A stretch of 64,000 nt of DNA from an uncultured Gemmatimonadales bacterium (lineage in GTDB: Bacteria; Gemmatimonadota; Gemmatimonadetes; Longimicrobiales; RSA9), in NCBI GenBank assembly GCA_963798085.1, contig CAWCRS010000005.1, positions 672,001 to 736,000 of the forward strand, in the 5' to 3' direction. The position numbers and the translations under genes were made by a program. The notes beneath the pieces are model-generated. The model saw only the letters and a list, made by a program, of their open reading frames with translations. It made no database searches and was not told where the DNA came from. Positions 11,901 through 62,313 of the stretch are shown here, piece by piece. Every line of letters begins with the position of its first letter. Position 1 is the first letter of the stretch.

Positions 11901-11908
11901 GGATTCGG

Positions 11909-29710: not shown

Positions 29711-30654
29711 TCAGATTTCGTCGCGCAACACCCGGTCGGGATCCACGCGCGCCGCGCGCACCGCTGGAATCAGCGAGGCGAGCAGCGCGGCGCCTCCCAG
29801 CACACCGGCGGACGTCAGGAACGCAACCGGATCCTGTGCGCCAATGCCGAAGATGTAGCTGCGCAGGTAGCGCGTAAGCACGAGGCCCAGGCCGGTGCCG
29901 GCCGCGATGCCGATCGCTGCCGTGAGTGCGGCATTGCGCAGGAACAGACTTAGCACGGCCGGACCCGGTGCGCCCAGCGCCCGGCGAATGCCCATTTCGC
30001 GTAAACGCCGTGTTACCGCGTCGTTCGCGGTTGCGCAGGTACCCACCGCCGCGAGCAGCAGCGCGAGCAACGCCAGGCTGCCCAGCAGACTCGTCAGGCA
30101 ACGCGCTTCCGCCGTCGTCGCTGCCAGCCGCTCGTGCATCGTCTCGCTGCGGTCGACCGGCGTCCCGTTCCCCACTTCCGCCACAAGCGACCGGATCGAC
30201 CGCGCCGGCGCAGACATGCCGGGGTCGAGCCGTAGGGTCAGGATGCAGCGCGGTGCCGGGCTCTCTGCGCCTCGGTCCCCTGCCCGGGCCCGCGCTGGCT
30301 CACGTCCGCCACCACGCCAATGATCTCGCGCATTGGCGCATTCGACCTGCCGAACCGCAGCCGCCTGCCCACGGGATTCGACACGTTGGGAAACACCGCG
30401 CGCGCCGCCGCCTGATTGATGATGATCGCGAGCGGATCCTGCGCACGCACGTCGTCCGGGAAGCGTCGCCCTTCGAGCAGCCAGAAGCGCAGCACACCCG
30501 CGAGCGACCGGCGCCGCGCGGCGTCCCGATGGCGCGCGTCGAGGGTCGAAACCAGATCGTCGCCCATCGCATCCCGGAACGACGCGGGATAAATGCGCAG
30601 CAGCAGGCGCAGCAGGGCCCGCACCCGGCCACCCCTGACATCGCGTTCAGGCAT
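29711..30654 (-). pseudogene. Internally deleted ADOP permease #2
   Basis: N-terminal prefix (LLRIYPASFRDAMGDD) joined directly to second-half periplasmic motifs (LEGRRF..IIINQ); frameshift before the last TMs. Confidence 0.8.
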
Positions 30655-30656
30655 GG

Positions 30657-31019
30657 CTACCGCCGGCCCTCCGCCAACCTGCGGATGCGCCGGCTGCGCG
30701 ACAGGGCCAGGATGCGCCGTGCCTCGGCAGTGATCACCACGCGGCCCAGCGGCGTCAGCCGGAAATATCGGCGCCGCGCATCATCCTCGGATTCGTGGGG
30801 CCGCTGCCCCGACGCCTCGACCAGTCCATCCTCCAGCAGACGGCGCAGCTTGCGATACAGCAGGCTGGGCGCCATGCCGATGCCCCTGGCTTCAATCGCT
30901 TTCACGATGGCGTAGCCGTGCAGCTCCGCGGCTTCCAGCGCGAGCAGCACCTCGAACACATCCGGCTTGAGCGGCAGAAACGCGTCGGCGTCGCTACGTG
31001 CGGGCGTGGTCCCGGTCAT
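30657..31019 (-). CDS. PadR family transcriptional regulator
   Basis: FLPLKPDVFEVLLAL..HGYAI..LY..DARRRYFRLTPLG; AGGAGG RBS. Confidence 0.9.
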   Translation of the reverse strand: MTGTTPARSDADAFLPLKPDVFEVLLALEAAELHGYAIVKAIEARGIGMAPSLLYRKLRRLLEDGLVEASGQRPHESEDDARRRYFRLTPLGRVVITAEARRILALSRSRRIRRLAEGRR

Positions 31020-31079: not shown

Positions 31080-33803
31080 TCAGCGCGCGCAGGCTGCGCG
31101 TTCGCCCAGCTCGTGCAGGGATCGCGTCCAGTCCTCAGGCGAGAGCACCGCGCGCAGTCGCGCGCAGGTCGTGGTCGTCATGTCTCCGGCGGTGAGTGGC
31201 CAGACGCGCAGCGTGCCATCGATGGCGCCGGTGACCAGCCAGCGCGGCTTGCGCGCGGGTACGAAGATCGCCGCGCCCACCTCGCCATCGTGGTGGAGCG
31301 TATCGAAGACGCGCGATTCCGAGAGGCTGGTGAGCTGCATGCCGCCGGCCGTGGGGGTAGCCGACCAGGCGCTGTCCGAGCTGATCAGCGCGTCCGGCTG
31401 CTTCAGCGCCACGGCCGGCCAGGCGAGGGATTGCGCTGCCAGCTCGACATGCTGCGTCGGTTGCAGTTTCCTGGGCGTGCTGTCGCGTGGCAGGTAGAAG
31501 CCGCGGGCCACATCCTGCTGCTCGTGGTACTGCGATGCGATCTCGGCCGCGGTCGACAGGTCCCAGACGCGCGTTCGTGTGGGCCGCAGCAGGCCAATGC
31601 CGCGCGTGAATTGCGGCGCTGTGACCGTCGCGATGCGGTTGCCATCCGGGCTCACGCGGATGTCCTGCACACTGCCCTCAAGCTCGACGCGCAGCGCCTC
31701 GTGCCAGTCGGCGGAGGAAAGCACACGGATGCGCCCGTATCCGCTCATGGCGATCAGCCAGCGCGCCGACGCGTCGAATGTCAGCCACGCGATGTCGTCA
31801 GCGAACGCGATCTCCGTGGCAGGCGACCAGGTGCCCACATCAATGACGTGCAGTGTCCCGCCGGTGGCAAACAGCGCATTGCGTCCATCCGGGCTCATCA
31901 AAGCCATTGTGATAGGCGCGCCCAGCGGCAGCTGTTTGCGCTCCGTCCACAATGCGGCATCGAGCACGTGCACCGTGCCGGAATCCGTGGCGGCGGCCAC
32001 CCAATCCGGGGCCGCGCTCTGCAGCAGCGCGCGGATCCCGCCGATCAGCTTCACGCGCGCCACATCGCCGCCTGCGGCGAGCGGCCACAGCACGACGTTC
32101 CCGGCGCTGTCCTCGCCTGCCACGAACCGGCTGTCAGGACTCACCGTCATGGCGACGGTCGCGACCGGGATGATGGTGGCTTCGGCCAGCGCCAGACCGC
32201 ACAGAATGGCAATGGCATGGCCGCCTGTGGCGAAGCAGACGCTGTCGCGGCCCGCCACCGGGGCGATGGAGTGCAGCGTGAGCGGCTTGCGCGCCACGCG
32301 CTCGAGCGTGCTTTGACCCGGAGCGGTTCGCGTGCGCCACAGCTCGAGGCCCTGCCCGGCCGTAGCCAGCAGGTCGCCGTCGGGCGCGAAGGCCATGCCC
32401 CATACCAGTCCGCCGATACCGGCCTGTGCTAATGCTTTGTCAGGCGCCATTCCCGTCCAGAGGCTCAGAGTCGAGCCGCCGGCCACGGCCACAACGTCGC
32501 CATCCGGACTGAAGGCCACGCTGAAGATGGACGATGCCGCGTGCGCAAATGTCCCGAGCGGCTGCCGCGAGCGCGCGTCGTAGAGGTATGCGTCGTTGGC
32601 ACCGTAGCTCGCGGTCGCCAGACGGCGGCCGTCCGGCGAATAAGCCGCGGACCACAGCATCGAGCCCTGGCGAGGAAGCCTTGCGAGGAGCGCGCCGCTG
32701 GCGGGATCGACGATGCACGCCTCCAGCTGGCAGCCCACGAGCAGCCGAGCGCCATCGGGGCTGAACGCGAGTGTCGTCCGGCCTGCCGCGCTGCGTGCCG
32801 CCGCAATGGTGCGCAGCAGGCGACCGCTCCCTGCATCCAGGATCTGCACGATGCTGGCGCCATCCGCTTCCGCGAGCAGCTTCCCGTCCGGACTGAACGC
32901 CAGCACTCTGGCGTGTTCACTGGTGGCAGCGGATCCGCCATCATGCGGCAGCTGCTGGCGCCAGAGCGGCGCTCGGGGCGCGAGGCCCATCATTCGCATC
33001 AGAGAGATCTCGCCATTCACGGTAGGCGAGGCGCGCAATGAAGCCACCGCGAGGAGCGTCGCCCGCACCCAACCCTCGCCCGTCTCGTCGAACGCCAGTC
33101 GCGACTGCACTTCGTACTGTCCTGCTAACGCGAGATTGCGCTGGCGGATTGCCTCGGCGCGGGAGAGCAGGGCCCAGATCGCGAGGGCGCTCAGCGCCGT
33201 GATGATGCCGGTCACACCGGAGGCGACGATGCGCCGCAGCCTCGCCGCGCGTTTCTGCTCACGCTGCTCGACCTGGCCCCGGTCGACGCCGTGTTCCGCG
33301 TACAGGTCGGCCAGCAGCTTGAACCATGCTGGCGCGAACCGGCCCTTCTGCAGCCTGTCCGACTTCGCGCTGAAGCCGCGATAATCACTGGCCAGCGGCA
33401 TGGGCAGCCGGCGCAGCAGCTCCTCCGGAAACGCCTTGCGATCCGCGTCGGCCGGCCCGGCATCATTGTTGGGAACGCCGTCCACCAGCACCGCGATGAT
33501 GTGGTCGCTGCCGTGCAGCTCGGCGAAGCGCCGGATCTCATCGCTGACGTACGCGCTGGCTGCAGCGGCGGGCGAGCAGAGCACGATGAGCTTGGCGGAC
33601 GCGCGCAGGTTGCGCTCGAGCGACGCATGGTACTCGACGCCGGAGAAGTCGGACTCGTCACGGAACACGCGCAGCCGGCGCTGCGGCACGGCGAGGTCGC
33701 GGGGCGGGCGGTAGGCATCGAGGGCCGCCTCGAAGCGGCGCGCGAAATCCGCGTCGCGCCGGGAGTAGCTGATGAACGCGTCGTAACCGGATTCCTCTGT
33801 CAC
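31080..33803 (-). CDS. TIR domain - TM - WD40 repeat protein
   Basis: YDAFISYSRRD, VFRD, IVLCSP..S.YVSDEI; one TM; many AFSPDG WD40 blades; no P-loop seen. Confidence 0.85.
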   Translation of the reverse strand: MTEESGYDAFISYSRRDADFARRFEAALDAYRPPRDLAVPQRRLRVFRDESDFSGVEYHASLERNLRASAKLIVLCSPAAAASAYVSDEIRRFAELHGSDHIIAVLVDGVPNNDAGPADADRKAFPEELLRRLPMPLASDYRGFSAKSDRLQKGRFAPAWFKLLADLYAEHGVDRGQVEQREQKRAARLRRIVASGVTGIITALSALAIWALLSRAEAIRQRNLALAGQYEVQSRLAFDETGEGWVRATLLAVASLRASPTVNGEISLMRMMGLAPRAPLWRQQLPHDGGSAATSEHARVLAFSPDGKLLAEADGASIVQILDAGSGRLLRTIAAARSAAGRTTLAFSPDGARLLVGCQLEACIVDPASGALLARLPRQGSMLWSAAYSPDGRRLATASYGANDAYLYDARSRQPLGTFAHAASSIFSVAFSPDGDVVAVAGGSTLSLWTGMAPDKALAQAGIGGLVWGMAFAPDGDLLATAGQGLELWRTRTAPGQSTLERVARKPLTLHSIAPVAGRDSVCFATGGHAIAILCGLALAEATIIPVATVAMTVSPDSRFVAGEDSAGNVVLWPLAAGGDVARVKLIGGIRALLQSAAPDWVAAATDSGTVHVLDAALWTERKQLPLGAPITMALMSPDGRNALFATGGTLHVIDVGTWSPATEIAFADDIAWLTFDASARWLIAMSGYGRIRVLSSADWHEALRVELEGSVQDIRVSPDGNRIATVTAPQFTRGIGLLRPTRTRVWDLSTAAEIASQYHEQQDVARGFYLPRDSTPRKLQPTQHVELAAQSLAWPAVALKQPDALISSDSAWSATPTAGGMQLTSLSESRVFDTLHHDGEVGAAIFVPARKPRWLVTGAIDGTLRVWPLTAGDMTTTTCARLRAVLSPEDWTRSLHELGERAACAR

Positions 33804-36241: not shown

Positions 36242-39200
36242 TCATTCTCCCATCAGTGTCGCCAGTTCGCTGCGGATCTCGCGGATCGCTTCGATCAGCG
36301 ACTGCCGCTGACGCTGCCGTTCCGCAGCGCCCGTCTTTGCCGCCCCGCCGTCACCCTCGCCATCCGTTGCGACCGGCTCGGGCGGTGCGCCCGCCGCCGC
36401 TCGGCCGAGTACGTCGGTGAGCCAGTCCAGGTGTTCCAGCACACTGCGCATCTTGCGCGGCGAGCCGCCCCGCTGCCAGGCTCGCCTGTAACCGGCTGTT
36501 ATCGTGGCGGGGACCGCGATCTGCAGGCTGGCCATGCCCTGGATCAGCATGACTTCCGGTTCCGCCGCCAGCTGCCAGAAGTCGGCGAATTTTTCCTCGG
36601 CCTTGCGCGCGGCGGCCCGGATGCGTTCGCCCTCGCCGCTCCAGTCCGGCGGCTGCACGTCGAGCAGACCATGGGCCTGCAGCACCGCACACGCGCTCAG
36701 CCAGTTGAGCGCCGGGTAGGCATCGAGGCCCCTGGCCAGACGGTCCGCATTCTGGTAATAGCGCATCATGCGGCGCAGCGCCGTCACCCACTCGTCAAGC
36801 TCGAGCAGTGCGGTGAGCCGCTTCTGCGCGGAGCCGAAGAGCGCCAGTCGCTCCGAGGTGAACACATCCGCATGCATGCGTGCTTCGGTGAGCCGGCCCG
36901 GAGGCAGCGCATCGAGGTCGCTGATGGCGCCGCGGATTTCCCGGGTGGCTGCCACGTGGTCTTCGTGCCGGCGGCCCGAGGCCAGATAGGTGCGGAAGGC
37001 GATGCGCGAGCGCAGGTTGGCGGCCTGCTCGAGTTCCCGGATCGAGATCTCGGCCACCGTGGCAGACCGGGCCGCGTCATAACACCGTATTGCCTGGTCG
37101 AAACAGTCCAGCTCGCGGTAGGCCCTGGCAAACGCCGTCAGCACGCTCGCGTCGGCGAGCCATTCCGCGCGGTTGTCGCGCACCCACGCCTCGATGCGTC
37201 TGACGCCCGCGTCCGGCTTTTCGGCGCCGTTCCGCTGCGCCAATGTCTCCGCGTCCTGGGCAATGTTGTGAAGCTCCACGATGACTTCGCTGCGCGCGGC
37301 AAAGCCCGCGACGGTCGGTTCCCCCTCGTACTCGTCCTTCGCCATGTCGAGGCGGAAGCCCGGATCGCCGTAACACTGGTACGCGCCCCAGGTGTTCACC
37401 GCGGGATGCTCGCGATACGTCGTTTCGCGCGCCTCCTTCACCGCTTCGCCGAAATGACGCCCGCTCAGCAATACGCGGTAGAAGGTGGTGGCGAACGTGA
37501 TCGCGGCGTCGTCGTCTACGGCCCAGCCCGCGGCAATGACGGCGCGCACGCCCATGCGAATGAACTGCGCCGCGATGTTGGCCGCCAGGCGATGGCGCAT
37601 TCTGCGCTGGTCGGCCTCCGTCCCCTGGTCCTTCTCGTCCGTGCGCCCGAGGTGGCAGCAGTTGACGAAGACCAGTTCGGGCACCGCCCGCATCTTCTCG
37701 ATTTCCGCGGGCGTCAGCAGGGTGTAGTTGGGGCCGATCACCATGCCGCTGACCTTGCGCGTCACCGGCGTGTCCTCAGGCGTCCTCGCCTCGCGCACCG
37801 TGATTTCGTACTCGTGCAGGCCGTGCGCGGCAAAGTGCAGGATGCGATAGTCGCGCGCGAACAACTGCCCGACGACATCCTGTGCACTCGGTCGCGAAAG
37901 ATAGGTAACACTGAGTTTCTTCTCCTGCAGCAGCGCGTTCACCGCCTCCGCTTCCCGCTGTGCCCCCTTGAGCTCCGGCAATTCGCTGGGCGGGTCGCCC
38001 ACGACGAAGGCGTTCTTCACCGTGACGGTGCCCGGCCGTTCGCGGAACGTGTCCACCAGGAGATTGCGCACCAGCCCCGTGCGCACGGCAATGGGCAGCC
38101 CCTGACCGGAGCGTCGGTCCTCCATCAGCTCCCACGGGAAGCGTGCGGACGCCTCGTCCACCGCCAGCACCAGATCATTCTGGTCAGGCGCGTACTCCTT
38201 GAGCGCGTTGGGTACGAGCAGCTCGAACAGCGCCCCCGCCGTAACCGGATCGGGTCTTGGTAATGCGATGGCGCTGCTGACGAAGCTGTCGATCAGCTGC
38301 TTCTGCGTCGGCTCGAGGTAGGATTCCGCGCGCGCGCGTTGCGTGAGGTTGCGAAACTCGAGGGCGCCATCCTCCAGCCTCTCGGTGACCTGGATGTGGT
38401 TCCACCAGCGACCTTCTTCCTCGAAGCGGACGCGCCGACGACCGCCGGACATGATCTCCAGCGCGGGCATCGCCACGATGTGCCCGGTGTAGCGCGCGTC
38501 CGACTGCAGGCGCTGCAATGCGCTCACGGCCTGCAGCGCGATGTCTTCGTACAGCTCGATGAACTGCAGCTGCTGGATTCTGACACGCTTCATTTTCTGT
38601 GCACTGCCCAACCGGTCGCGTGCGGCCGTCACGCCGGCGACAATCGCGCGCACGGAATCTTCGACCGGCATGCCGCCGCGGCCGGAGCCGATCAGCAGCG
38701 CCGCGACGCCCACCGACATTGGTCGTGTCGCGGTGTAGTCTCCCTCCAGCTCCACCAGCTTGGACGCGAAGGCGAGGGTACCGTGCAGCACGGTGCGCTC
38801 GAGCGTGCCGGGCGCCAGACTGCCAGGCTTGCCCAGCCCCACGACCAGCGCTCCGTGCGCGCCGCTGCCGTCGTTGCGCAGGAATATCCCCAATGTGCCG
38901 ATCGCATCGGCATAGAGATCCAGCCGCTGATGCTCCGTCAGCAGACCCTCGAGGCGCTGGTCGAGCGCCAGTTCGGCGCCGGCAATCGTGTCGCCCTGGT
39001 AGTGCCCCACCATGACGGGATAGCGGGCAAACGCGAGATTGCCGTGCGCGATGGTGACAGTCAGCGGTTCCGTGCTGTCCACGGGAGCAATGCGTACCGC
39101 GTCTCCCATCAGCGCGACGGCCTCGAGGTCCGCCTGCTCGGGGAACGCCGTCACTTCGTCATCGGGCAGTACGAACTCGCGTGGCGCACCGCGATCCGCG

Positions 39201-41693
39201 GCCGGCGGCTGCTGCGGCAGCTCGTTCGTGTCACCGCGCTCGAGCAGCGCCTGGATGGCGCCGAACCAGCGCTGCACATTCGCCATGTCACCGTGCTTCA
39301 CGGGCATGTAGAAGGTGGGCACGCCCTCCAGCAGGCCCAGGCTCCAGGGCACGGTGCCGTCACCCTGTGACGTGGCCATGAATTCGATGCTGGCGCCACT
39401 CGTGCGATAGCGGAAGGGCGTGGCCGGCGCACCACCGGCCACGTACACCATGTGCCGGGCATCGACGGAATCCGGCGATTCCAGCAGCTGGCGAGTCGCG
39501 CGCGCGGCCTGCAGCACGGCTGCCGAGGGCAGCGCCTTCGTGTGTCGCGCATCAATGTCGAGTGTGCGCCAGCCGGCTTCCGTGAACAGGTCGTTATCAG
39601 GATCGGCGGGCAGCATCTCGATCAGCCCGGCAAACGCCGCCACCGTCTGCAGCAGCTGCTGCTCGTTGCTCTTCAGGTCGATGAGCGAGAGGATGCGTGT
39701 GAGACGATCGCGGCCCAGCAGCAGCCGGGGCACCACCCAGGCGCCGCGATTCGGTGTTCCCAGCATCACCAGGCGGCTGGCATCGCGCTCGACCACGCGG
39801 CCCCAGAGCGCCGGGTACTTCGCGATCATGGTGCGCGCCACCAGTCCGCCCATCGAGTGCGCCAGGATGCGGATGGGCTGCCGCGTATCGCGCAGCGCGT
39901 CATCGACGGCGCGGGCCAGCGCATCCGCGGACTCCGCGACCGTGCGCCGCCAGTCATAGGGGAACTCGAGCACATCGTGCGAGGCGGCGAGGTACTGGCT
40001 CAGGCGGGCGTACGAGCGTGCCACCAGCGCCGTCGCCTTCACATCGGTTCTGGCGATGGCGAGGTTGTCGAAGCGGCCCGCCGCAATGCGGAAGAGATCG
40101 ATCCAGACCCGGTCGCCTGCAACCTGCAGCTCCGAGCCCATGATGCCGGGCAGCAGGAACACAACAGGCCGTTTGCCGGTGATCGCGGGCGCCGCCGCGC
40201 CTGCATCGCGCCGGCGCAGCTCGTCGGCGGTCTGCGTGGTGATGGGCTCGAAGCCTGCGTCGCTGTTATCACCGCGCACCAGGCCGAGCAGCATCTTCTC
40301 GGCGGTGGACGATGTCCTGAAATAGTGAAAGTGATTGATGTCCTTGCTGTTGTCGAAGTAGAGCCGGGCCTTGCCATCCTTGCGCGGTGCACCGCCCACC
40401 ATGGCGCGCGTGGGCACCACCAGATCGTGGTCTTCCGCGTAGAAGAGATCGGTCACCAGCGCGGTCAAATGGTGCCAGATCGAGCCGCCCGCCAGGTCGC
40501 CGGCGATCACCGACAGGTCCGCGCTCACGGTCACATCGCGCCGGTTCAGCACCGCGATGAGCGGCGATTCCGGCATCTGCGCTTCCAGACCCGGCAGTGT
40601 GGCCGGGTTCGCGCGCTCCTTGATGAGCGCAGGAATCAGCGCATTGAGGAAGCTGACAACGGGATGCGCCGGCAGCACGAGACGGATGCCGTTCAGCAGA
40701 ATGGAGAGGTAGAGATCGAGCCGGCCGGAGGCGAGCGTGGTGCCGTTCGCGGGACACGCGACACGCACGAAGCGCTCGATCACAGGACGCCGGTCCGCGA
40801 GCAGGTCGGACAGCGTCTTCAGGTCCGCCGCCTGCTGCAGGTAGATCGGCTCGCGCGCAGCGCCCGCCTGTTGCGCGGCGCGCTCGAAGAAACCGGTCTC
40901 GACCGCATTCGAACGGATCGCCATCGCGCATGGAGCGGCAGAGCAGTTCACCGACAATGCCGCCGCGCGAATGACTGACCATGTGAACGCGCGCGCCGCG
41001 CGGCAGGTGCTCGACGAGGTCAATGGCGTTGCGAACCGGGCTTTCGCTCAGCGTGGCGTGCTGCAGTGCGAAGATGCGATCACCGTACCTCGCCTTGAGC
41101 CGCTCCCAGACATTGTCCGGCAGCTTGCCGAAGCTGCCGTCATAGCTCGACGCGGTGCCGTGCAGGAACAGCAATGACACGCCGTTATCATTCAGCGTAT
41201 CGTCGATTCGCTCGGCGAAGGATGACTGCGTGGCGCAGCGGTACAGTCCGGGGCCGCTGCTGCCGCCCGTGTCGAGCAGATGGCGTTCGACGCGCGCCGC
41301 GACCGCGGTGGCGCCGACCTCCGCGATCTTCTTGCGCACATCCAGCTTGCGCAGTGTCTGAATCACCCACTTGCCGAAGCCGCGCGAAGGCGCTCCGATG
41401 GGCAGCACGGCCGGCATGAACAGCGAGCCATCGCGTGCCACCTGCTGGCCGCCCGCCTGGAACAGCTCGCGCAGCGTGCTCCCCGCCAGCCACAGCTGGA
41501 TCCCGCCATCCAGCGAAATCTCGGCGACGTCGCTGTCCTCCAGGTCCACCGGAATCGTGGACGCGTCTCGCGCCTCACCCAGGCGGTATTCCTTGTCCGT
41601 GCCAATGTCGACGAGATCGCCGAACTCGCCCGGATCGAGTGTCCTTGCGCCGGTGCTGACTTCGGTGCCGCGGAAGAGCAGTCTGGTGGTCAT
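36242..41693 (-). CDS. Large multidomain protein: two alpha/beta hydrolase (lipase) domains + CHAT caspase-like domain + TPR tail (frameshift at ~40908)
   Basis: FLHGTAS/VSHSRGG/ACPANGT; LPGIMGS/LAHSMGG/LGTPNRG; FPWELM, VVGDP, HFAAHG, FVNCCHLG, AAGWAVDD, WGAYQCYGDP. Confidence 0.85.
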
Positions 41694-44838: not shown

Positions 44839-47289
44839 TCACACATCCTGCTCGTTGCGCATCACGCGCAGCGGATCCGTGCGCATCGCGAGGCGAGCGG
44901 GGCTCGCGGTCGCGAGCAGGCTCGCGCCGAGCAGCGTGGTGGCAGTCAGCGACAGTACCAGAGGATCGGTTGCAGTGACGCTGTAGAGCAGCGGCTGCAC
45001 CAGCCTGCCGAGCAGCGTTGCACCCGCGATTCCTGCGAGCACGCCGCTCCCGCCAATGGCGAGGCCCTGCCGCAGCACGAGTGCGCGTACACTGGCTGCC
45101 TGCGCGCCCAGCGCCATGCGGATGCCGATCTCGCGCGTACGCTGGCGCACGGAGAAGGCCAGCACGGCGTACGTGCCTACGACGGAGAGCAGCAGCCCGA
45201 GCAGCGCGAACGCAGCGCTGAGTGCGGATTGGAAGCGTGGTCGTGCGAGGGGTGCGGCCAGCAGGCGAGGCAGCGGTGTGATGCCGAGCAGGGCGGCGCC
45301 CGGCTCTTCCTGTGCGACGGTACGACGCAGTGTCGCGGCGAATGCGGCGGGATCGCCGGCCGTGCGCAGCGCGACATAGCCGGGGAACACGGGAATGCCC
45401 TGTTCGTACGGCACATACACGCTGGGGCGCACTTCGGTGAGGTCGCGGTAGCGCGCATCGGCAGTGACCCCGACGACGGTGCGCCAGGGATCGGTTGACT
45501 CCGCCATGCCCAGTTTGATGCGCCGGCCGATCGCGTCCGCACCCGGCCAGTACAGGCGGGCAAACGCCTCGTTAACCCAGACCACGGGTGCACTGCCGGC
45601 GCGATCATTCTCGCGGATGGCCCGGCCGCGCACGATGGGCAGACCCAGCGTCCTGAAGTAGGCCGCATCCACGGCCTCGTAGTTGGCGTATGGATTGCTC
45701 GCGGCCGCGCGCGTCTGGCCCTCGGCGTACCAGACCGCATCGACGCCACCGTTGACTGCGAACGGCTGCGTTGCCACGGCACTCGCACTGCTGATGCCGG
45801 GCACCGCGGCGATGTGCTCTGCGAGACGCACCATGGCGCGCTGAAACTGCGGTGCTTCCGTGTGCAGACCCGGCGGCATGGCGATATCGACGAGCGCCAC
45901 GCTCTGTGCGTCGAAACCGGCGTCCAGATGAAGCATGCGGTCGAGGCTGCGCAGCAGCAGCCCCGCGATGGAGAGAATGATCGTGGTCACGGCGATCTGC
46001 CCCGCGACCAGCGTGTGGCGCAGCAGGCCGCCCCGCCCATCGGAGGCGTGGCCGGCGCCGCGCACACGCAATGCCTCGCCTTGCGCTGCCCGTGCTGTCC
46101 GTACGGCTGGCAGCATGCCGAACAGCACGGCTCCGGCGAGCGCAATCGCGGCCGTGAACCCGAGCGCGCGACCATCCAGCGCGATCTGCGAGAGGCGAGG
46201 CAGTTCCGGCGGCGCGAAGGCGAGCAGAACGTGCAGTGTCGCATACGCCAGGCAGAGTCCCGCGATGCTGGCGGCCACCACGAGCACGGTCGCTTCCGTG
46301 GCGAGCTGGCGCAGCAGCCGGCCGCGGCTCGCACCCATGGCGCTGCGCACGGCCAGCTCGCGCGCCCGGGTGAGTCCGCGCACGAGCAGCAGGTTCGCAA
46401 CGTTCACGCCGGCTACCAGCAGCACGAGCAGCACCGCGGCCGCGAGCACCAGCAGTCCGGGGCGCACATCGCCCACCACGACATCGGCGAACGGCACTGC
46501 ACGAACAAGCTGTTGGGTCTCCAGTCCGGTGTCGACCTGCTGCGTCGCGGCAGCCAGCTCGGCCCGTGCCTGCGCCACGGTGAACCCCGGCGCTACGCGG
46601 GCCACGATATCCCAATCCACCTGGTCGGCATCACGCAGCGAATGCGCGCCGGTCAGCCGCGAGAGGTAGAAGGGAACGGCCGCGACCCACGCCTGCGCGC
46701 CCCCCGGGTACTCGAATCCGGGCGATGCGATCCCGGCCACGGTGTACGTCACGTCGTCAATGCGCAGCGTGCGGCCCGTGACTGCCTCCCTGCCGAACAG
46801 GCGGCGTGCGGCGGCGTCCGCTAACACAATGACAGGCGAGGCGCCGACGCGGTCGTCACCGGCCGTCAGCATGCGACCGGATGCGGCCCGTACGCCCAGC
46901 ACCCCGAACCAGTCGCCGGTCACGGGCGTGACCGCGAGCGGCACGGCGCGATCGCCCAGCTGCAGCGCCGTGCGATTGGTGCCGTTGTACGGGTGTGCCG
47001 CCAGGTCGCTCACTGTGCGCAACCGGCCGCGCAACGCAGCGTATGCCTCGTACGTGAACGGCATGTGCGCAAAGCCGCGCTGCGGCAGCGACGTCCAAAC
47101 CACCAGCAGCTGCGCCTGGTCCTGCACCGGAAGCGGTTTGAGCAGCACGCCGTCCACCACGCTGAAGACGGCGGTGGTTGCCCCCATGCCCAGCGCCAGC
47201 GTGAGCACGGCCGTAGCCGCGAAGCCGGCGCGCGCGCGGAATGTGCGCAGCGCAAACCTCACGTCCTGGCGCAATCCTTCGAAGGGCAT
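44839..47289 (-). CDS. ADOP-type duplicated ABC permease #3 (no adjacent PadR)
   Basis: QDVRFALR, TLALGMGA, NVANLLL, RTREIGIRMALGA; GGGAGG RBS. Confidence 0.9.
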   Translation of the reverse strand: MPFEGLRQDVRFALRTFRARAGFAATAVLTLALGMGATTAVFSVVDGVLLKPLPVQDQAQLLVVWTSLPQRGFAHMPFTYEAYAALRGRLRTVSDLAAHPYNGTNRTALQLGDRAVPLAVTPVTGDWFGVLGVRAASGRMLTAGDDRVGASPVIVLADAAARRLFGREAVTGRTLRIDDVTYTVAGIASPGFEYPGGAQAWVAAVPFYLSRLTGAHSLRDADQVDWDIVARVAPGFTVAQARAELAAATQQVDTGLETQQLVRAVPFADVVVGDVRPGLLVLAAAVLLVLLVAGVNVANLLLVRGLTRARELAVRSAMGASRGRLLRQLATEATVLVVAASIAGLCLAYATLHVLLAFAPPELPRLSQIALDGRALGFTAAIALAGAVLFGMLPAVRTARAAQGEALRVRGAGHASDGRGGLLRHTLVAGQIAVTTIILSIAGLLLRSLDRMLHLDAGFDAQSVALVDIAMPPGLHTEAPQFQRAMVRLAEHIAAVPGISSASAVATQPFAVNGGVDAVWYAEGQTRAAASNPYANYEAVDAAYFRTLGLPIVRGRAIRENDRAGSAPVVWVNEAFARLYWPGADAIGRRIKLGMAESTDPWRTVVGVTADARYRDLTEVRPSVYVPYEQGIPVFPGYVALRTAGDPAAFAATLRRTVAQEEPGAALLGITPLPRLLAAPLARPRFQSALSAAFALLGLLLSVVGTYAVLAFSVRQRTREIGIRMALGAQAASVRALVLRQGLAIGGSGVLAGIAGATLLGRLVQPLLYSVTATDPLVLSLTATTLLGASLLATASPARLAMRTDPLRVMRNEQDV

Positions 47290-51332: not shown

Positions 51333-54029
51333 CTACTCGGCGCGCAGCGCGACCGCGGGATCGACCCGGGCGGCGCGCGCCGCTGGCAGCCAGCAGGCGG
51401 CGACGCCGACGGCGGTGAGACCCAGCGCGACGGCCCCGAGCGTGAGCGGGTCGTGCGGCGTGACGCCATAGAGCAGGCCGCGCAGCAGCCGCGTCGCCAG
51501 CAGTGCGCCGACCAGACCGGCCCCCAAACCCGCCGTTAGCAGTACGCCGCCCTCGCCCAGCACCATGCGCTGCACACGCGGCGGGTTCGCGCCCAGACTC
51601 ATGCGTATGCCGATCTCCGCGGTTCGTGACCGCACGGAGAACGCGAGCACGCCGGCAATGCCCACCATCGCGATCAGCAGCGCCAGCGTGCCGAACGACG
51701 CGATGAACAACGCGTTGCGACGGCGCGGCGCCACGGTTTCGTCGCGGATCTGTTCCACTGTCTCAATGTGCTCGATCAGCTGGCGCGGGTAGATCTCGTG
51801 GATCGTGCGCACGATCGCCGGCTGCAGCGCCACGGGATCCGCAGCCGTCCGCACGACCAGCGCGCCGCCAATGATGAACTCCTGTGCGAACGGCTGGTAC
51901 ATGGTCGGCGCAGGATCGCTTTCCAGGCCCGCATCGCGGGTGTCGCCCACGATGCCCACGACCGTGCGCCAGTCGTCCGTGAAAGGAGTGAACTTCAGCA
52001 CCGCGCCGGTCCAGGCGACACGCCGGCCGATCGGATCCACATCGCCGAAGAGCAGTCGGGCGAGTGCCGCGTTCAATATGACGACCAGCCCCGTGCCCCG
52101 TCGGTCCGTCGTCTGGAATGCGCGACCCCCGAGCAGCGGGATGCCGCTCGCTGTGAACCAGTCATGGTCGACCGTCTTCATTGCGGCGTGCGGCGTCGGC
52201 CGGTCCGGCGGCACGGTGCGGCCCTCGGCTTTCACTTCGAGGTCGATCATCGATCTGCGCAGCGGCGCCACGCTGCCGAGCGCCGCCATCCCCGCACCGG
52301 GTATCGCGGCCACATGATCGCGTATGCCTTCGTACTTTGCGAGGTTCTCCGGCTGCTTCATCAACTCACGCAGGAGGTCGCCCTCCAGCGGCAGCTCGAG
52401 CGTGAGCACGTGCTCGGCGTGCACCCCACTGTCCACCGATTCGAGCTTGCTCAGCGTGCGCATCAGCAGACCCGCGCCGGTGAGCAGCACCACGCATGCG
52501 GCAATCTGCGCAATCACGAGCGCGCCCTGGAAGCGGCGCCGCCCGCGGCCGAGCGTGATGCGGCGCCCCGCCGGCGCCAGCGACGCGGCGAGCCCGCGGT
52601 CACCGCCGATCCCCGTGACAAACGACAGCGCGATCGCGGCGGCAATGCTCGTCAACAGCCCGACCGCGAGCACAACGCCGTCGACGCGGATCTCGGAGGC
52701 GCGCGGCGAAAGCTGCGCCGCAAACGCCACGAGTATCCTGAGGCCGGCATACGCGATGAGCACACCGAGACCGCCGCCCAGCAGTGACAGACCCAGATTC
52801 TCGACGAGCAGCAGACGGCGCAGCCGCACACGACCGGCCCCGAGCGCCGCGCGCACCTGCATCTCGCGCTCGCGCCCGACGCCACGCATGAGCGTGAGAC
52901 TGGAGACATTGGCGCAGGCAATCAGCAGCACGAATGCCGCCGCGCTCATCAACAGCCAGAAGGTGAGCGACGCACGCTCGTTCAGCGCCTGGCGCAGCGG
53001 CTTCACCGTGATCGTGTACCGTGACGCCTTCTCATACGTCTCCGGATGATCGCGGAACATCGTGGACGCAATGCGGTCGATCTCGTCGCGCGCCTGCGCG
53101 ACCGTGCTGCCGGGCGCCAGACGCGCGAACATCTCCGTCATGCGGTGCGAGCGGTCGGTTACCATCGTCGCACTCAGATGATGCGGGCTCGTCACCGTGT
53201 TTACGAACACGTCATTGCGCTGCGGGTAGTCCGGCGCGGACTGCACGACACCGATCACCGTCGTCACCTTGTCGTTGAGGCGGACTGCACGCCCCACGAT
53301 GCCCGGGTCACCCCCGAAGTGGTCCTTCCAGAACGGCAGCGTCAGCACCGCGACAGGCGAGGCCGCCGCACCGTCGTCCTGAGGATTCGTCAGGCGACCC
53401 AGCACCGGCTGCAGACCCATGACCTCGAAGAAATCGCCGCTGACAACGCCCGTCCGCACGCGTGTCGACACGCCGTCGCTGCCGATCATGGTGAACGGCA
53501 GCACGGAAGAGTATTCGGCAATGTTGGAGAGTGTCTTCGCCAATGTGCGGTAGTCCTCGACCTCGGGAACCGAGAAGAGCACGTTCTGCTGCCCCGTCCC
53601 CTGCGCCGACTGCCGCAGGTACAAGAGTCGGCCACCCTCACGATTGGGCAGTGGCCGAAGCAAAGTGCCGCGCAACAGCGTGAACATGGCCGTATTTGCA
53701 CCAATGCCCAGCGCCAGCGTGAGGATGACCGTCAGCGAGAAAACCGGCGCACGTCGCTGACTGCGCAGAGCGAACACAATGTCGCGACCCAGCTCCTCGA
53801 GCCAGCCTGTGCCGCGCGTGTCGCGCACCTGCTCCTTGCGCAGGTCAATGCCACCCAGGGCCCGCAGCGCCGCGGTCCGCGCCGCCCGCGCCGGCATGCC
53901 CTGCCGCAGATTCTCCGCAATCTGCTGCTCCAGATGGTACCGCAGTTCCTCATCGAGCTCGCGCTCGACTTCGCTCCGCCGGAAGAGTGTGCGCAGGCGG
54001 AGCCGCACAATGCGCAACCATCGACCCAT
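51333..54029 (-). CDS. ADOP-type duplicated ABC permease #4
   Basis: ERELDEELRYH prefix, LIACANV, RTAEIGIRMSLGA. Confidence 0.92.
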   Translation of the reverse strand: MGRWLRIVRLRLRTLFRRSEVERELDEELRYHLEQQIAENLRQGMPARAARTAALRALGGIDLRKEQVRDTRGTGWLEELGRDIVFALRSQRRAPVFSLTVILTLALGIGANTAMFTLLRGTLLRPLPNREGGRLLYLRQSAQGTGQQNVLFSVPEVEDYRTLAKTLSNIAEYSSVLPFTMIGSDGVSTRVRTGVVSGDFFEVMGLQPVLGRLTNPQDDGAAASPVAVLTLPFWKDHFGGDPGIVGRAVRLNDKVTTVIGVVQSAPDYPQRNDVFVNTVTSPHHLSATMVTDRSHRMTEMFARLAPGSTVAQARDEIDRIASTMFRDHPETYEKASRYTITVKPLRQALNERASLTFWLLMSAAAFVLLIACANVSSLTLMRGVGREREMQVRAALGAGRVRLRRLLLVENLGLSLLGGGLGVLIAYAGLRILVAFAAQLSPRASEIRVDGVVLAVGLLTSIAAAIALSFVTGIGGDRGLAASLAPAGRRITLGRGRRRFQGALVIAQIAACVVLLTGAGLLMRTLSKLESVDSGVHAEHVLTLELPLEGDLLRELMKQPENLAKYEGIRDHVAAIPGAGMAALGSVAPLRRSMIDLEVKAEGRTVPPDRPTPHAAMKTVDHDWFTASGIPLLGGRAFQTTDRRGTGLVVILNAALARLLFGDVDPIGRRVAWTGAVLKFTPFTDDWRTVVGIVGDTRDAGLESDPAPTMYQPFAQEFIIGGALVVRTAADPVALQPAIVRTIHEIYPRQLIEHIETVEQIRDETVAPRRRNALFIASFGTLALLIAMVGIAGVLAFSVRSRTAEIGIRMSLGANPPRVQRMVLGEGGVLLTAGLGAGLVGALLATRLLRGLLYGVTPHDPLTLGAVALGLTAVGVAACWLPAARAARVDPAVALRAE

Positions 54030-54036
54030 ACTTGCC

Positions 54037-54372
54037 TCAGATCCCCTGCAGACGCACTAACGCAGTGATAGCACCGGCCAGGCGGTCCCAGTTGCCAGCC
54101 TCGACCTGCAGCTGCTTCCGGCCGGCCCGCGTCAGCGAGTAGAACTTGGCACGCCGGTTGTTCTCGCTCGGCCGCCACTCCGACGTGACCCACCCCTCCT
54201 GCTCCAGCTTGTGCAGCGCCGGATACAGCGAGCCGTCACTCACCTGCAGCGCATCCGCTGACAGCTGCTTCAGCCGCTGCCCGATCGTCCAGCCGTTCGA
54301 CGGCTCCAGCGCCAGCAGCTTCAGGATGAGCAGGTCCAGCGTGCCCTGCACCAGGTCGGTCGGTTTGCTCAT
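54037..54372 (-). CDS. PadR family transcriptional regulator
   Basis: [33 protein letters not shown]. Confidence 0.92.
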   Translation of the reverse strand: MSKPTDLVQGTLDLLILKLLALEPSNGWTIGQRLKQLSADALQVSDGSLYPALHKLEQEGWVTSEWRPSENNRRAKFYSLTRAGRKQLQVEAGNWDRLAGAITALVRLQGI

Positions 54373-56404: not shown

Positions 56405-59024
56405 CTATCCTGCCCTCAGCGTAACGCCGGGATCGACGGCCGCTGCACGCCGGGCGGGAATGTAGCTGGCAAGGCCGGCAACCAGCAGCAGGAACAGCGC
56501 TGCGCCCAGAAGAGTCAGCGCATCGCGTGCTGCGACGCCGTAGACCAGACTGGTGACGAGGCCGGCGGCCCCCATGGATAGCACGAGGCCGGCGGCCACA
56601 CCGATCATGGCAATCGACAGACCCTGCCAAACTACCTGTTGCGTGACGGCACCGGGGCTCGCTCCGATGGCTGTCCGTATTGCAAATTCGCGTACGCGTT
56701 GCGCCACGTTGCAGGCCACGACCCCATAGACCCCGACCGCGGCCAGGAGCAGGGCCAGCCCGCTGAACCCGACCATCAGCAGCGTCGTCAGCCATCGCTG
56801 CGCCTCGGAGAGGTCCACGATCTCCGTCATGGTGCGCACGTCGTAGACGCTCTGCTCCGTGTCGACCGATCGGATCGCCCGGATGACCGGGCCCGTCAGC
56901 GCAGCCGCTGCCGTCACGCTGCGCACGGCCAGCACCATGCGGTCCTGTGTCCACTGACGATAGCTCCAGTAAACCTGCGCCGCCGGGTCGACCTCCAGCG
57001 CCGTGGACCGCACATGCCTCACGACACCGACGACATTGACCCATCGACCACCCAGCCCTGCCGGTTCGCGGAAGCGCCTGCCGATTGCCGATTCACCCGG
57101 CCAGATCGCATGCGCCACGCGTTCATCGATGATCGCGACTGCGGGACCGCTGGCGTCATCGTGGTCATTGAAACCACGCCCGCTGATGAAGCGAATCCCG
57201 AGCGTTGTGAAGTAATCCGGACTCACTGTGCGCGTGTCGACGTTCGTCAGTTCATCCGGCCGGCTGGTCGCGTTCTCGAAGTACACGGGATTCGTCTGGC
57301 CTCCGGAGAGCGGGATGCGATTCGCCAGACCCGCGCTCGTGACGCCGGGTACGGCGCGCACCGCCTCCAGCACCCGGGCGTAGTAGTCCGCGACTTCCGG
57401 ATCCGTGCGGTGTCTGCTGCGCGACACTTCGAACTTGAACGTCGTGACCTGCTCCGACCTGAAACCGGGGTCCACATGCAACACGTTGATCGCACTCCGG
57501 AGCAACAGGCCCGCGCCCACGAGCAGCGGCAGCGCAAACGCAATCTGCGCTGCTGCCGCGGCGCGGCTCGCCCTTGCGCGGCCTCGACCGGAAGTGGACG
57601 TGCGGCCACCATCCCGGATGACCATCGCGAAATCCGATGCCCATGCCTGAATTGCGGGCACAGCGCTCGCCGCGAGGCCGGTCAGCACGAGCAGCGCAAG
57701 CGAGAATGCGACGACCGGCGCGCTCAACGCGATGCCCTCGACTCGCGGCAGCCCCGCCGGTCGGTTCGCCACGAATTCCCGGACTGCCCACTCGGCCAGA
57801 CCCATGCCGGCCAGTCCGCCTGATAGCAACACTGGCGTCGCTTCCGCAAACGTCTGCGCGAGCAACCGCCTGCGTGATGCACCGAGCGCCAGCCGCACGG
57901 CGAATTCGCCTCGCCGTGCGCCGCCTCGGGCCGCGAACAGATTCGACAGGTTCGCACACGCGATCACCATGAGCAACGATACCGCTCCCAGCAGCAGCAG
58001 CAGCGCGGGCCGCACATCGCGCACGGCATCGTCGAGCAGCGAATCGACCGTCATGCCGCCGTTGCCCGGATAGCTCGCCGCCAGACGCGTGGCCAGCACA
58101 CCCGCCGCCTGACGCGCCTGATCCAGCGTCACGCCCGCGTGGAGCCGCGCGACCACTCGGTAATTGTCTGTTGCCTCACGGGTCAGCTCGCGCGGATCCA
58201 GCACCAGCGGCACCCACGCCTGATGGGCGCTCGACGGATAGCGAAAATCCGGCCGCATGACACCGACGACCGTACTGGCCGCGTCGTTGAGCCGGATCTG
58301 TCGCCCGATCGATCGCAGAGTCCGCGCCGAACCGGCCGCGCCACAGCCCGTCGCTCAGCACCACCACACGCTCTCGGCCCGCCTGATCCTCGCCCTCCGC
58401 AAACGTCCGGCCCAGCGCCGCAGTCACACCGAGCACCCGGAAGAGATTCGAGGAGACGCTCGCAGCCTCGAGCCGCTGCGGCTCGCCATTCTCCACGAGG
58501 TTCAGGTTCGTGTTCTCGAAAAACGCGACGTCGTCGAAAACAGCGCGCTGTTGTCGCAGCTCCATTGCATCCGCCGCCGCCGGGTAGTTGCGAGCGTCGT
58601 GTCGCGTCAACCGAATGCTGACCAGGCGTTCCGGCGCACGGAAAGGCAGCGGCCTGAGCATCACGCCGTGCACGACGCTGAAGACCGCGGTGGCGGCGCC
58701 CACGCCGAGACCGACAATGCCGATCGCGGTGACGCCGAATACCGGAGCCTTGCGCAGAAGCCGGATGCCGTACGAAAAATCCTGCAGCACCTGACGGAAG
58801 GCCGCGCCGGGTCTCTCAGCGCGTGCGACTTCCTGCACCGCATCAACGCTGCCGAATACGAGAAGCGCTGCGCGGCGCGCGTCTGCTGGAGTCATGCCGC
58901 GGGCGAGGTTCGCATCCGTCTCGCGATCCAGGTGGAAGCGCATCTCTTCGCCCAGGTCCGCGTCCACGCGCGCACTGCGGAACAGCGCGCGCCACAACCC
59001 GATCAGCCAATGGAGCACTCGCAT
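56405..59024 (-). CDS. ADOP-type duplicated ABC permease #5 (frameshift at ~58310)
   Basis: DLGEEMRFH prefix in 58176..59024; continues with VIACANL and RVREFAIR in 56405..58258. Confidence 0.85.
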
Positions 59025-59039
59025 TCGCCCCTTCGCCGT

Positions 59040-59369
59040 TCACGCGGTTCGCATGACGAGCGAGATCGCCGCCGACAGACGGTCCCAGTCCGCGCGTTCC
59101 TGTTCCAGCTGTCGCCGGCCGGCCGCCGTCAGCCGATAGAAGCGCGCGCGCCGGTTGCTTTCCGACGCACCCCAGTCCGCTGTGATCCAGCCCTGTCGCT
59201 CGAGCCGCTGCAGTGCCGGGTAGAGCGAGCCCTGATTGACCCGCAACACATCGTTCGACAGCTGCTGGATGCGCTGCGCGATCGCCCAGCCGTGCAGCTT
59301 CCGGCCGGCAATGGTCCGCAGAATCAGCAGGTCGAGCGTACCCTGCACCAGATCGGCGGGTCGCGTCAT
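59040..59369 (-). CDS. PadR family transcriptional regulator
   Basis: [39 protein letters not shown]. Confidence 0.92.
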
Positions 59370-59707: not shown

Positions 59708-62313
59708 TCAGCCGCACTCACTGTAGCCGCAGGCCAGACACTTCATGCAGCCTTCCATGTACTGCAGCTCGGACTTGCAGTCCGGGCAGGTGCCGAGGAA
59801 GTGTCTGGCCCGGGTCGTAGCCATAATCGAAATCGATCTGCGTACCGGCCTGTGTGCCGTCATCACCCGCAGTCCCGGCGTAACCCGGCACACGGGCCGG
59901 TGCGCCGGCGGACGGACCGGATGTCGTCGCCTGCGGCATGGGAAGTTCCTGCTGCACACCTTCCTTCTCGCGCTCGTGCTGGATCAGCGCCTGCGCAATG
60001 GCATCCGGCACCGATAGCACCTTGTTAGGGCCGACGCCCACGGCGCGGTCGCAGGAGATGCCGCGCATCTGACGGTAGATCTCCGACATGGGAATGCCGC
60101 TGCGCAGCCCCAGCGAGATCAGCCGGCCGATGGCCTCGACATCCGCCATGGCGGCGCCGCCGGCCTTGCCCAGGGTGGCGAAGACCTCGAAGGGCCGGCC
60201 CGTCTCGTCCTCGTTCACGGTCACGTAGAGATCGCCCAGCGGGCTGGGCATGCGGCGCGTCATGCCGGTGAGCAGCGCCGGCCGCTGCCGCTTCATGCGG
60301 CGACGCTGATTCCTCGCCTGCTCGTCGACCAGCGCCCGCTTCAGCTCCTCGTTGTCGTGCATGATGCGGTGCAGTTGCTCGCGCGCGTCCGCCAGCTGCG
60401 CCTCGAGATCCACTTCCAGTGCGCTCTTCTCCGGCGTACCCGCCACTTCCTTCGCCGTCTTGCCCGTGGACAACACCTGCATGGGCCGCGAGGCATCGCG
60501 GTAGACGGTCACGCCCTTGCAGCGCAGGTCGTACGCCATGACGTAGATCTCGCGCACATCCTGCTCGCCGGCTTCGCGCGCGAAATTGCAGGTCTTGCTG
60601 ATGGCGCTGTCGACAAACTCCTGGAACGCCGCCTGCGTACGGATGTGCCACTCGGGCGTCACATCGTGCGCGGTGACGAACACGCGCTGCACGTCCGCCG
60701 GCACTTCCTCGAAGTGAATGTGCCCTTCCCCCGCGATGCGCGTCATCAGGTCGTCGCTGTACCAGCCCTGCTGCCTCGCCACGCGCACAAACTCGCGATT
60801 CACATCGGGCATGAGCACGCCCGCCTGGTTGCGCATGAAGGCGACGGCGAAGAGCGGCTCAATGCCGCCCGAGCAGTCCGCGAAGATCGAGATCGTGCCC
60901 GTGGGGGCGACCGTCGTGACATTGCAGTTGCGCAGGCGACGCGCGGGACGCACGCGCTCACCCCGTGCGTCCCGCGCGCACGTCTCGTCCGGTCCCCAGA
61001 ATGCTGCGCTCCCATTCCGGGAACACGCCGCGCTTCTCCGCCAGCCGCTCGCTCTCGCGCTTGCTCTCCTCGTCCACGAACTGCATCAGCGCGCGCGCCA
61101 CCTCGATCGCTTCATGGCTGTTGTAGGGCACACCGACGCGCACCAGCAGATCGGCGTAGCCCATGATGCCCAGGCCAATGCGGCGGATGCGCTGCGCCAG
61201 ATCCGTGATCTCGTCGAGCGGGTAGTTGTTGGCGTCGATGACGTTGTCCAGGAAATGCGTACTGGTGGCAACCACCTGGCGCAGCCCGTCCCAGTCGATG
61301 CGTTCCCGCCAGGGCAAGGCGTCGGCCACATCACTGCGCGCGAAGAGCCCGACGTTGACGCTGCCCAGATTGCACACGTCATAGGGCAGCAGCGGCTGTT
61401 CGCCGCACGGATTCGTCGCCTCGTAGCTGCCCAGGTGCGGCACCGGGTTGTAGCGGTTCGCGGCGTCGATGAAGAACACGCCCGGCTCACCCGTCGCCCA
61501 GGCGCCGTGCACGATCAGGTCGAAGATCTCGCGCGCGTCCTCCTGTCCGGCCACATCGCCGTTGCGCGGGCTGATCAGATCGTACTTCGTGCCCGCCTTC
61601 ACCGCCTCCATGAACGCATCGGTGACCGCTACCGAGATATTGAAGTTGGTGATCTGGCTGACATCGAGTTTGCAGGTAATGAAATCGCGGATATCCGGAT
61701 GGTCGACGCGCAGGATGCCCATGTTGGCGCCGCGACGGGTGCCGCCCTGCTTCACGACCTCCGTGGAGGCATCGTACAGACGCATGAAGGAAACCGGCCC
61801 GCTCGCCACACCCATCGTCGAGCGCACCACATCGCCTGCCGGACGCAGCCGGCTGAAGCCGAACCCTGTGCCCCCGCCCGACTGGTGCACCAGCGCCATC
61901 GCCTTGAGCGTGTCGTAAATGCCATCGTGCTCGTTGGAGATGGCGTCCGTCACGGGCAGCACGAAACAGGCGGACAGCTGCCCCAGCGGCCGCCCCGCGT
62001 TCATGAGCGTGGGGGAATTGGGCTCGAACAGGCGCTGCGTCATCAGCCGGTAGAACTCGCGCGCCAGCTGCTCAATGCCGCCATCACTCGCGCCGTAGCG
62101 AGCGTCTTCTTCGGCAATGACGTGAGCGACGCGCCAGAACATCTGCTCCGGTTCCTCCACCGGCCGGCCGCGCTCGTCCTTCTTCAGGTACCGCCGGGCC
62201 AGCACGATGCGCGCGTTCTCCGACAGGTCGGCCGACGGCAGATCGTCCGGCAGCAGCTCGCGACGACGGAGTACCTCGGGTGAAACCGAAACGGGCGTGA
62301 TGCTGGCGTTCAT
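59708..62313 (-). CDS. nrdJ: Adenosylcobalamin-dependent (class II) ribonucleotide reductase (frameshifts at ~61000 and ~59802)
   Basis: PNSPTLMNAG, LSACFV, QGGTRRGANM, TNPCGEQ..CNLGS, VAPTGTIS, SAISKT, KGVTVYRD; TSCPD-like domain; CPDC..CLACGYSECG. Confidence 0.92.

Follow-up and report, generated by a model that had tools for sequence, protein, structure and literature searches.

The closest described counterparts of the protein considered here pair a caspase-fold protease with a lipase-like enzyme. LcCaspase cuts the 296-residue alpha/beta hydrolase LcHydrolase at two conserved R-G sites, and the resulting fragments kill E. coli (10.1101/2025.11.14.688446, PMC12642450). In VMAP systems, every caspase domain has an alpha/beta hydrolase next to it, and a pairing of the two has been predicted (Kaur et al. 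2020, PMC7159879). SAVED-CHAT acts as an initiator on PCaspase (10.1101/2023.06.23.546230). Among the Thoeris systems, the sensor of type II has a macro fold and the TPR scaffold of type VIII is predicted to read TIR signals (10.64898/2025.12.03.692087; 10.1101/2023.05.26.542521), the effector of type IV is caspase-like (10.1101/2024.10.24.620036), and the TPR-S domain has been predicted to bind an NAD+-derived nucleotide (as cited in 10.64898/2025.12.03.692087; 10.1101/2023.05.26.542521). Here we describe a gene from a 64,000-nucleotide stretch of contig CAWCRS010000005.1 (the window), from an uncultured Gemmatimonadales bacterium (assembly GCA_963798085.1). Its architecture, in which one chain unites a caspase-like protease with two lipase-like enzymes and two predicted folds for sensing small molecules, is real and conserved. 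On balance, we think it probable that this single cytoplasmic protein serves as an effector in conflict or defence and stays latent until cleavage after conserved arginines activates its lipase-like domains.

With LcCaspase and LcHydrolase the protein shares a caspase-fold protease, a lipase-like hydrolase, conserved Arg-Gly sites and a proposed arming by cleavage. However, the Lc system consists of two genes, whereas here one chain carries two hydrolases, a CHAT-type protease, a macro-like domain and TPR-S. SAVED-CHAT/PCaspase and the Craspase protein Csx29 (TPR-CHAT) have in common with it the CHAT fold, a sensor fused to the protease and, often, an adjacent second caspase, but in our case there is no SAVED domain, the scanned neighbours include no CRISPR genes and the putative substrate lies in the same chain; the SAVED_CHAT profile matches weakly and over the CHAT part only. 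Thoeris types II, IV and VIII and the TPR-S systems share a macro fold, a protease resembling caspases and a TPR scaffold, with a TIR fusion or neighbour in a minority of loci. In contrast to Thoeris, TIR is no constant partner (5/56 lineages have it fused or no more than two genes away, and it is absent from the operon here), the macro-like domain falls outside Pfam Macro and the effector would hydrolyse lipids. Group XV or lysosomal phospholipase A2 and LCAT are the best sequence and fold match of the second hydrolase, whereas the present enzyme is bacterial, cytoplasmic, in tandem and fused to a protease. By analogy, the protein may work like the caspase-hydrolase module, but we do not class it within that module, Thoeris or the CRISPR-linked CHATs.

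Domain architecture and catalytic residues

A preliminary description, made from the sequence alone, had proposed a protein with two lipases, a CHAT protease and a TPR tail, and all of the motifs that it quoted are present in the read-through protein. Residues are numbered on that protein, in which an X stands at a frame break (residue 262); coordinates are collected in Table 1. The two hydrolases of the N-terminal half were confirmed, with DUF7379 scoring 67.6 bits (cut-off 33) and LCAT 35.4 (cut-off 21), and CHAT (PF12770) reached 103.4 bits (cut-off 24). TPR-S (PF20308) scored 27.3 bits in one scan, just below its cut-off of 27.6, and 33.5, above it, in a second, while Peptidase_M17_N gave a weak Pfam match (E 0.0024). 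Catalytic roles were assigned from motif and order. Both Ser-Asp-His triads and the CHAT His1290/Cys1346 dyad, already described as intact, are invariant in 119/119 listed close homologues, which are the listed non-self matches from a protein search that scored 7999 candidates. The strict motifs also recur in 70 further full-length representatives (HSRG in 65, HS[MQ]G in 57, the CHAT His in 65 and the CHAT Cys in 69).

Structural models are consistent with these assignments. For the N-terminal half we modelled the homologue L114 (predicted local distance difference test, pLDDT, 86.4; predicted template modelling score, pTM, 0.86), and its fold matches include lysosomal phospholipase A2, Tle4 and bacterial lipases; the hydrolases are predicted to act on lipids. 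An Atlas search with the N-terminal domain gave no usable match. The model of residues 865-1775 of our protein (pLDDT 85.8, pTM 0.76) resolved three parts. Its CHAT region has the caspase-haemoglobinase fold, with Csx29 and separase as matches (Z 20.6), and the C-terminal half also matches SAVED-CHAT and the Arg-specific gingipain R; a sequence search of the PDB with a profile of the C-terminal half returned no separase alignment, its matches being dominated by designed TPRs. The TPR tail does consist of helical repeats and can now be identified as TPR-S with the ASK1 scaffold fold (ASK1 regulatory region 5ulm: Z 19.2, root mean square deviation (rmsd) 3.7, 246 residues aligned). By comparison with separase, Asp1394 and Glu1247 of the CHAT domain presumably have an S1-pocket role, and their invariance, together with the conserved arginine sites described below, suggests that the protease is Arg-specific.

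The preliminary description had seen only an alpha/beta middle region; such a fold is indeed present, but its macro-like identity, and with it a second candidate sensor, had been missed. The domain matches the leucyl-aminopeptidase N-domain best (Z 16.5, rmsd 3.2, 167 aligned), followed by the PARP14 macrodomain (Z 14.4, rmsd 3.0, 166 aligned) and many macrodomains at Z 12-14; macroH2A, YmdB and MacroD2 are further fold matches. Alignment with hhalign to single Macro proteins gave probabilities of 8% and 0.2%, a weak register to true Macro, and the assignment was decided by fold comparison rather than by hhalign. The ADP-ribose pocket of macrodomains is marked by a G-D motif, a Gly-rich loop 1, a G-x-G-x-x-G loop 2 and a stacking aromatic. 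Our domain keeps G[N/D]L (G884 in 115/119 listed homologues, followed by N/D in 105), a G-T/S-G-x-G-G loop (loop 2 glycines in 95-116 of 119) and the C-terminal aromatic (position 1048, 113/119); its first loop is not Gly-rich. Judged from these residues, ligand binding by the macro-like domain is possible.

Table 1. Features of the gene, in window coordinates and listed from the N-terminal end; homologue counts refer to the 119 listed matches.
Feature	Position	Strand	Remarks
Whole gene	36242..41693	-	1816 residues read through, with X at the break
N-terminal beta-rich domain (residues 1-150), candidate pro-domain	41244..41693	-	poorly conserved except Gly9, Arg42 and Arg104
Arg42, candidate cut site	41568..41570	-	Arg in 118/119
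Arg87, candidate cut site	41433..41435	-	neighbouring alignment column Arg in 113/119
Arg104 of [S/T/A]-R-G motif, candidate cut site	41382..41384	-	117/119, then Gly in 114
Alpha/beta hydrolase 1 (DUF7379)	40253..41243	-	inferred triad Ser242, Asp423, His454; contains the break
Frame break by one surplus base, probable assembly error	40908..40909	-	
Arg495, linker between the hydrolases, weaker candidate	40208..40210	-	88/119
Alpha/beta hydrolase 2, LCAT / lysosomal phospholipase A2-like	39215..40177	-	inferred triad Ser613, Asp778, His800
Arg834, linker after hydrolase 2, best candidate	39191..39193	-	118/119
Macro-like domain (residues 876-1066)	38495..39067	-	nearest fold leucyl-aminopeptidase N-domain
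CHAT protease, N-terminal subdomain and catalytic domain	37343..38407	-	His1290, Cys1346; invariant Glu1247, Asp1394
TPR-S helical repeat domain	36398..37255	-	ASK1 central-regulatory-region fold

Candidate cleavage sites and a proposed mechanism

The candidate cut sites are single arginines followed by a small residue, and they are conspicuous in otherwise variable regions. Of the three segments that the L114 model predicts with low confidence, one is the Arg104-Gly loop. Arg834 lies 7-9 residues from its anchor in 116/119 listed homologues, a spacing that drifts as that of a linear motif would. Within 12 residues after hydrolase 2, R[GASD] occurs in 118/119 close homologues against a background of 25%, in 97 of 107 further representatives (of 131) whose sequence reaches the end of the domain and in 10/10 distant CHAT-fused proteins. 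Of our CHAT-less control, 34 distant hydrolase matches from a genome-contig search with this protein alone, 16 reach the end of the domain and 1 of these has the motif; the alignment register of the control is only approximate. Before hydrolase 1, [STA]R[GA] is found in 57 of the 70 further full-length representatives (background 22%).

From the observed domain order, invariant residues, folds, arginine-small-residue motifs and neighbouring genes, we infer a mechanism of four steps. A small molecule, probably derived from NAD+, would bind TPR-S and/or the macro-like domain, upon which the CHAT domain would turn into an Arg-specific protease. It would then cut at Arg42, Arg87 and Arg104 and at Arg834, either within its own chain or in another copy, so that the N-terminal domain would be lost and the two hydrolases set free. 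Co-encoded caspases, peptidoglycan hydrolases and metallopeptidases may be armed by it as well. Lipid hydrolysis would finally harm the envelope, and the cell would die or arrest. The protease-armed lipase of the preliminary description is well backed, if indirectly, by the invariant catalytic residues, the conserved flanking arginine sites and the two-gene analogue (10.1101/2025.11.14.688446). A more specific pathway, which we hold to be rather doubtful, would run within one chain from a TIR-type NAD+-derived nucleotide, bound by the macro-like and TPR-S domains, which would together clamp CHAT, through self-cutting at the Arg-Gly sites to release of a tandem phospholipase and arming of the co-encoded caspases and cell-wall hydrolases.

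Neighbouring genes and competing explanations

We grouped 78 metagenome loci into 60 lineages at 70% identity, 56 of them with a called neighbour. The nearest two genes on each side were scanned with Pfam at 75 loci (3 near-duplicates were skipped), selected genes were added and labels were tallied by hand, leaving out SLOG-like neighbours except that of L082, which counts as TPR-S. Across the 56 lineages we found a C14 caspase in 10, any caspase-fold protease in 15, TIR, TPR-S or NDT-macro in 8, a peptidoglycan hydrolase in 8 and a metallopeptidase in 3; the 43 lineages formed at 55% identity gave 6, 10, 7, 5 and 3, respectively, with none of these classes in 28. Given that this 6.2 Mb genome has one other C14 and 17 TIR_2 matches, the caspase link greatly exceeds the background and the TIR link does so moderately. 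PADLOC was run on the 148 nearest of 436 neighbours (71 loci) and returned 8 caspase matches, 2 TIR-like matches and generic helicase, reverse transcriptase, ABC and methyltransferase matches; no cas operon was found among the 148 neighbours within 1.5 kb. The Azotobacter plasmid copy adjoins a type I restriction-modification cluster and insertion sequence (IS) elements, and the Paracoccus copy adjoins nitrate reductase genes.

Several observations weigh against a conflict effector armed by cleavage after arginines. The homologues are related, so that their motif counts are not independent, and because of this and the rough register of the control we regard conservation of the arginine sites as strong but indirect evidence for cleavage; several members of the CHAT-less control carry an Arg-Gly a few residues earlier. 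The cut sites of LcHydrolase lie inside its hydrolase domain, whereas those proposed here, by eye against Table S1 of PMC12642450, fall in the N-terminal domain and linkers, outside the hydrolase cores. The macro-like domain may be structural, since Pfam Macro (PF01661) at E<=0.1 was found in 0/61 family members scanned and Peptidase_M17_N in 40/61. No tallied neighbour class is present in 33/56 lineages, and PADLOC recognised no complete known defence system among the 148 neighbours; the enrichment near classic defence islands that the preliminary description had proposed as a check was not seen. In the window the gene stands alone among msrB, DUF885 and DinB-type genes, and the TIR-WD40 gene 2.4 kb away lies beyond msrB and DUF885 and behind a gene on the opposite strand.

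The arginine sites could instead be cut in trans, with a separate caspase, clostripain or C25 protease doing most of the arming of the hydrolases and the CHAT domain serving as an initiator on that protease, like SAVED-CHAT, or as a broad cutter of host proteins, like type IV Thoeris. A C14 caspase is encoded upstream, co-oriented and within two genes in 10/56 lineages, and C11, C25 or CHAT neighbours occur in 6/56; in the C14 neighbours a [T/S]R[A/G] is conserved a few residues past the catalytic Cys, and in type IV Thoeris the caspase acts as a promiscuous protease specific for Arg (10.1101/2024.10.24.620036). Yet 41/56 lineages, and this window, keep the arginine sites and the CHAT dyad with no such neighbour, and we consider this cascade unlikely. 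Slightly less likely again is a non-immune stress or developmental switch, that is, protease-gated lipid remodelling or programmed lysis on a metabolic signal. The lineages without tallied neighbours and the lack of a complete defence system would suit such a switch, as would the peptidoglycan hydrolases, which lie mostly downstream as in a lysis cassette, but the patchy spread, the plasmid and IS context and the TIR, TPR-S and STAND partners fit conflict systems better. We give the least credence of all to an outward-acting toxin, a self-processing lipase cargo freed on lysis or delivered to competitors by a contractile injection system. Hydrolase 2 does resemble Tle4 in fold, and in the lineage of L104, L115 and L116 an operon of caspase, giant gene and M15 peptidase stands back to back with injection-system genes; this context, however, is confined to 1/60 lineages, in which the two sets of genes are divergent, the protein has no evident signal peptide and neighbour clustering gave no conserved immunity-like neighbour. 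Hydropathy over 19 residues peaks at 1.72, and the peak (residue 339) falls within hydrolase 1. For the latent effector that we favour, the term self-contained used in the preliminary description is only partly apt, since 15/56 lineages keep another caspase-fold protease within two genes.

The frame break bears on this copy rather than on the family. On the minus strand, the open reading frame starts with the ATG at 41693 and stops at 36242, giving 261 residues, the break and 1554 residues, or 1816 in all. In tblastn, intact homologues follow the first frame to 40908 and continue in the second at 40909, with their Met1 placed at 41693, bearing out the single protein of about 1,800 residues with a repairable frameshift that had been proposed. 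In soil run X1, one contig of a near-identical organism lacks one base at 40908, although at a depth of ~2 this is weak alone. Frame changes affect 18/110 near-full-length permease paralogues in the same assembly (one pair was probably double-counted), and at the break rate derived from them a gene of this length would be broken with a probability of ~31%. No other stop interrupts the read-through, and all catalytic residues are kept. Given the intact homologues, the X1 contig and the high background of frame breaks, an assembly error is likely, though not proven. That this copy is a true pseudogene with a biological break, in a family that is itself real, seems improbable to us: the break is present in the assembly itself and the intact form rests on one contig of low depth, but that contig lacks the base exactly where the homologues place the break, frame breaks are common here and neither the catalytic residues nor the rest of the frame have decayed. 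A ribonucleotide reductase gene in the window (59721-62313, minus strand) is also split by a frame change, near 61000, which is likely another assembly indel; run X1 showed no indel there, where its coverage is thin.

Companion genes and spread of the family

Some neighbours deserve mention in their own right. In the window, the TIR-WD40 gene (31080-33803, minus strand, 2.4 kb downstream and on the same strand as ours) encodes a 907-residue protein with a TIR domain, a hydrophobic stretch and a WD40 propeller; we rejected it as a partner in view of the 17 TIR_2 matches in the genome and the lack of an operon link. MacB/FtsX permease genes are repeated at 9237-12259, 29714-31019, 44842-47289, 51336-54372 and 56408-59369, most of them next to a PadR-like gene; near-full-length permease paralogues number ~110 across the genome, and at 29714-30654 there are only fragments of a copy. 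At other loci, the flanks of L047, L052, L056 and L079 hold a conserved cluster of a TIR-PASTA gene, a 668-residue nucleotide-hydrolase-like protein with TPR-S, the giant gene, an astacin-like peptidase and an unannotated 800-residue protein. In L057:9809-19760 the giant gene has a second TPR-S, a clostripain lies upstream, and a small nucleotide-hydrolase-like gene (by eye) and then a TPR-S and patatin gene follow. The gene upstream at L058:131-1288 fuses a TIR-like or nucleotide-hydrolase domain to a true Macro domain. An nSTAND1 NTPase and propeller gene (L126:2065-5988) lies upstream of the Ensifer plasmid copy, and L093 has a TIR-nSTAND1 gene downstream. The neighbours L082:11011-12831, L090:15600-16190, L092:1634-2221 and L101:8267-8812 are SLOG-like by eye, with no Pfam match there. 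Related unannotated proteins of 250 residues are encoded at L060:8292-9029, L064:6827-7567 and L089:11-757, behind a GH108 lysozyme in L060 and L064; they may resemble Cyt/Evf-type pore formers. The injection-system genes of L104:1261-8385, L115 and L116 comprise a sheath, two tubes, a baseplate and Pvc16.

The family is large and its spread is patchy. Among the scored candidates, 3498/7999 have E<=1e-20, so that a chance match can be set aside. DUF7379 and CHAT are present in 119/119 listed matches, which are mostly 1750-1900 residues long, TPR-S in 112/119 and an extra TIR domain in 6/119. Named hosts include Methylomirabilis, Longimicrobium, Bryobacteraceae, Desulfuromonadales, Binatia and Acidobacteriota, and plasmid copies occur in Ensifer, Azotobacter, Burkholderia, Paracoccus and Rhizobium (11 records, 3 of them covering at least 80% of the query). 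The macro-like domain was found in 1470 proteins (50% clustering) at E<=1e-10. Nearer to this organism, 0/40 related genomes had the full-length form and 4 a shorter one, and the middle domain was found in 2/300 genomes of a phylum sample in which at most 10 candidates were scored per genome. A shorter paralogue in this genome (L128:7073-11571, ~1016 residues) combines hydrolase 2, CHAT and a macro-like region, the last placed by tblastn and by eye. A separate TPR-S gene follows it, which ties TPR-S to the module even when unfused, and Arg-Gly motifs lie in the linkers of both.

Uncharacterised proteins named only as CHAT domain-containing, for example, WP_198868265.1 from an Azotobacter chroococcum plasmid, belong to the same family and likewise combine DUF7379, LCAT, CHAT and TPR-S, whereas the present copy has a frame break. 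Neither NCBIfam nor PADLOC has a family-level name. Our literature search found no functional study of the fused protein, in agreement with the preliminary description, and Burroughs and Aravind 2020 (J Bacteriol) may depict the architecture. Kaur et al. 2021 (PMC8195603) adds nothing specific to it, and four accessions of the family are absent from two supplements of Evans et al. (PMC12642450).

Protease-armed effectors are a main theme in bacterial immunity. Because predicted sensor, protease and effector are joined in one chain with precise predicted cut sites, the substrate of the hydrolase effector and the ligand of TPR-S become open to test using a single gene and a handful of point mutations. 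If true, the one-chain pathway would make this protein a single-gene death switch leading from nucleotide to caspase to lipase, in which the aminopeptidase-type macro fold would serve in ligand sensing.

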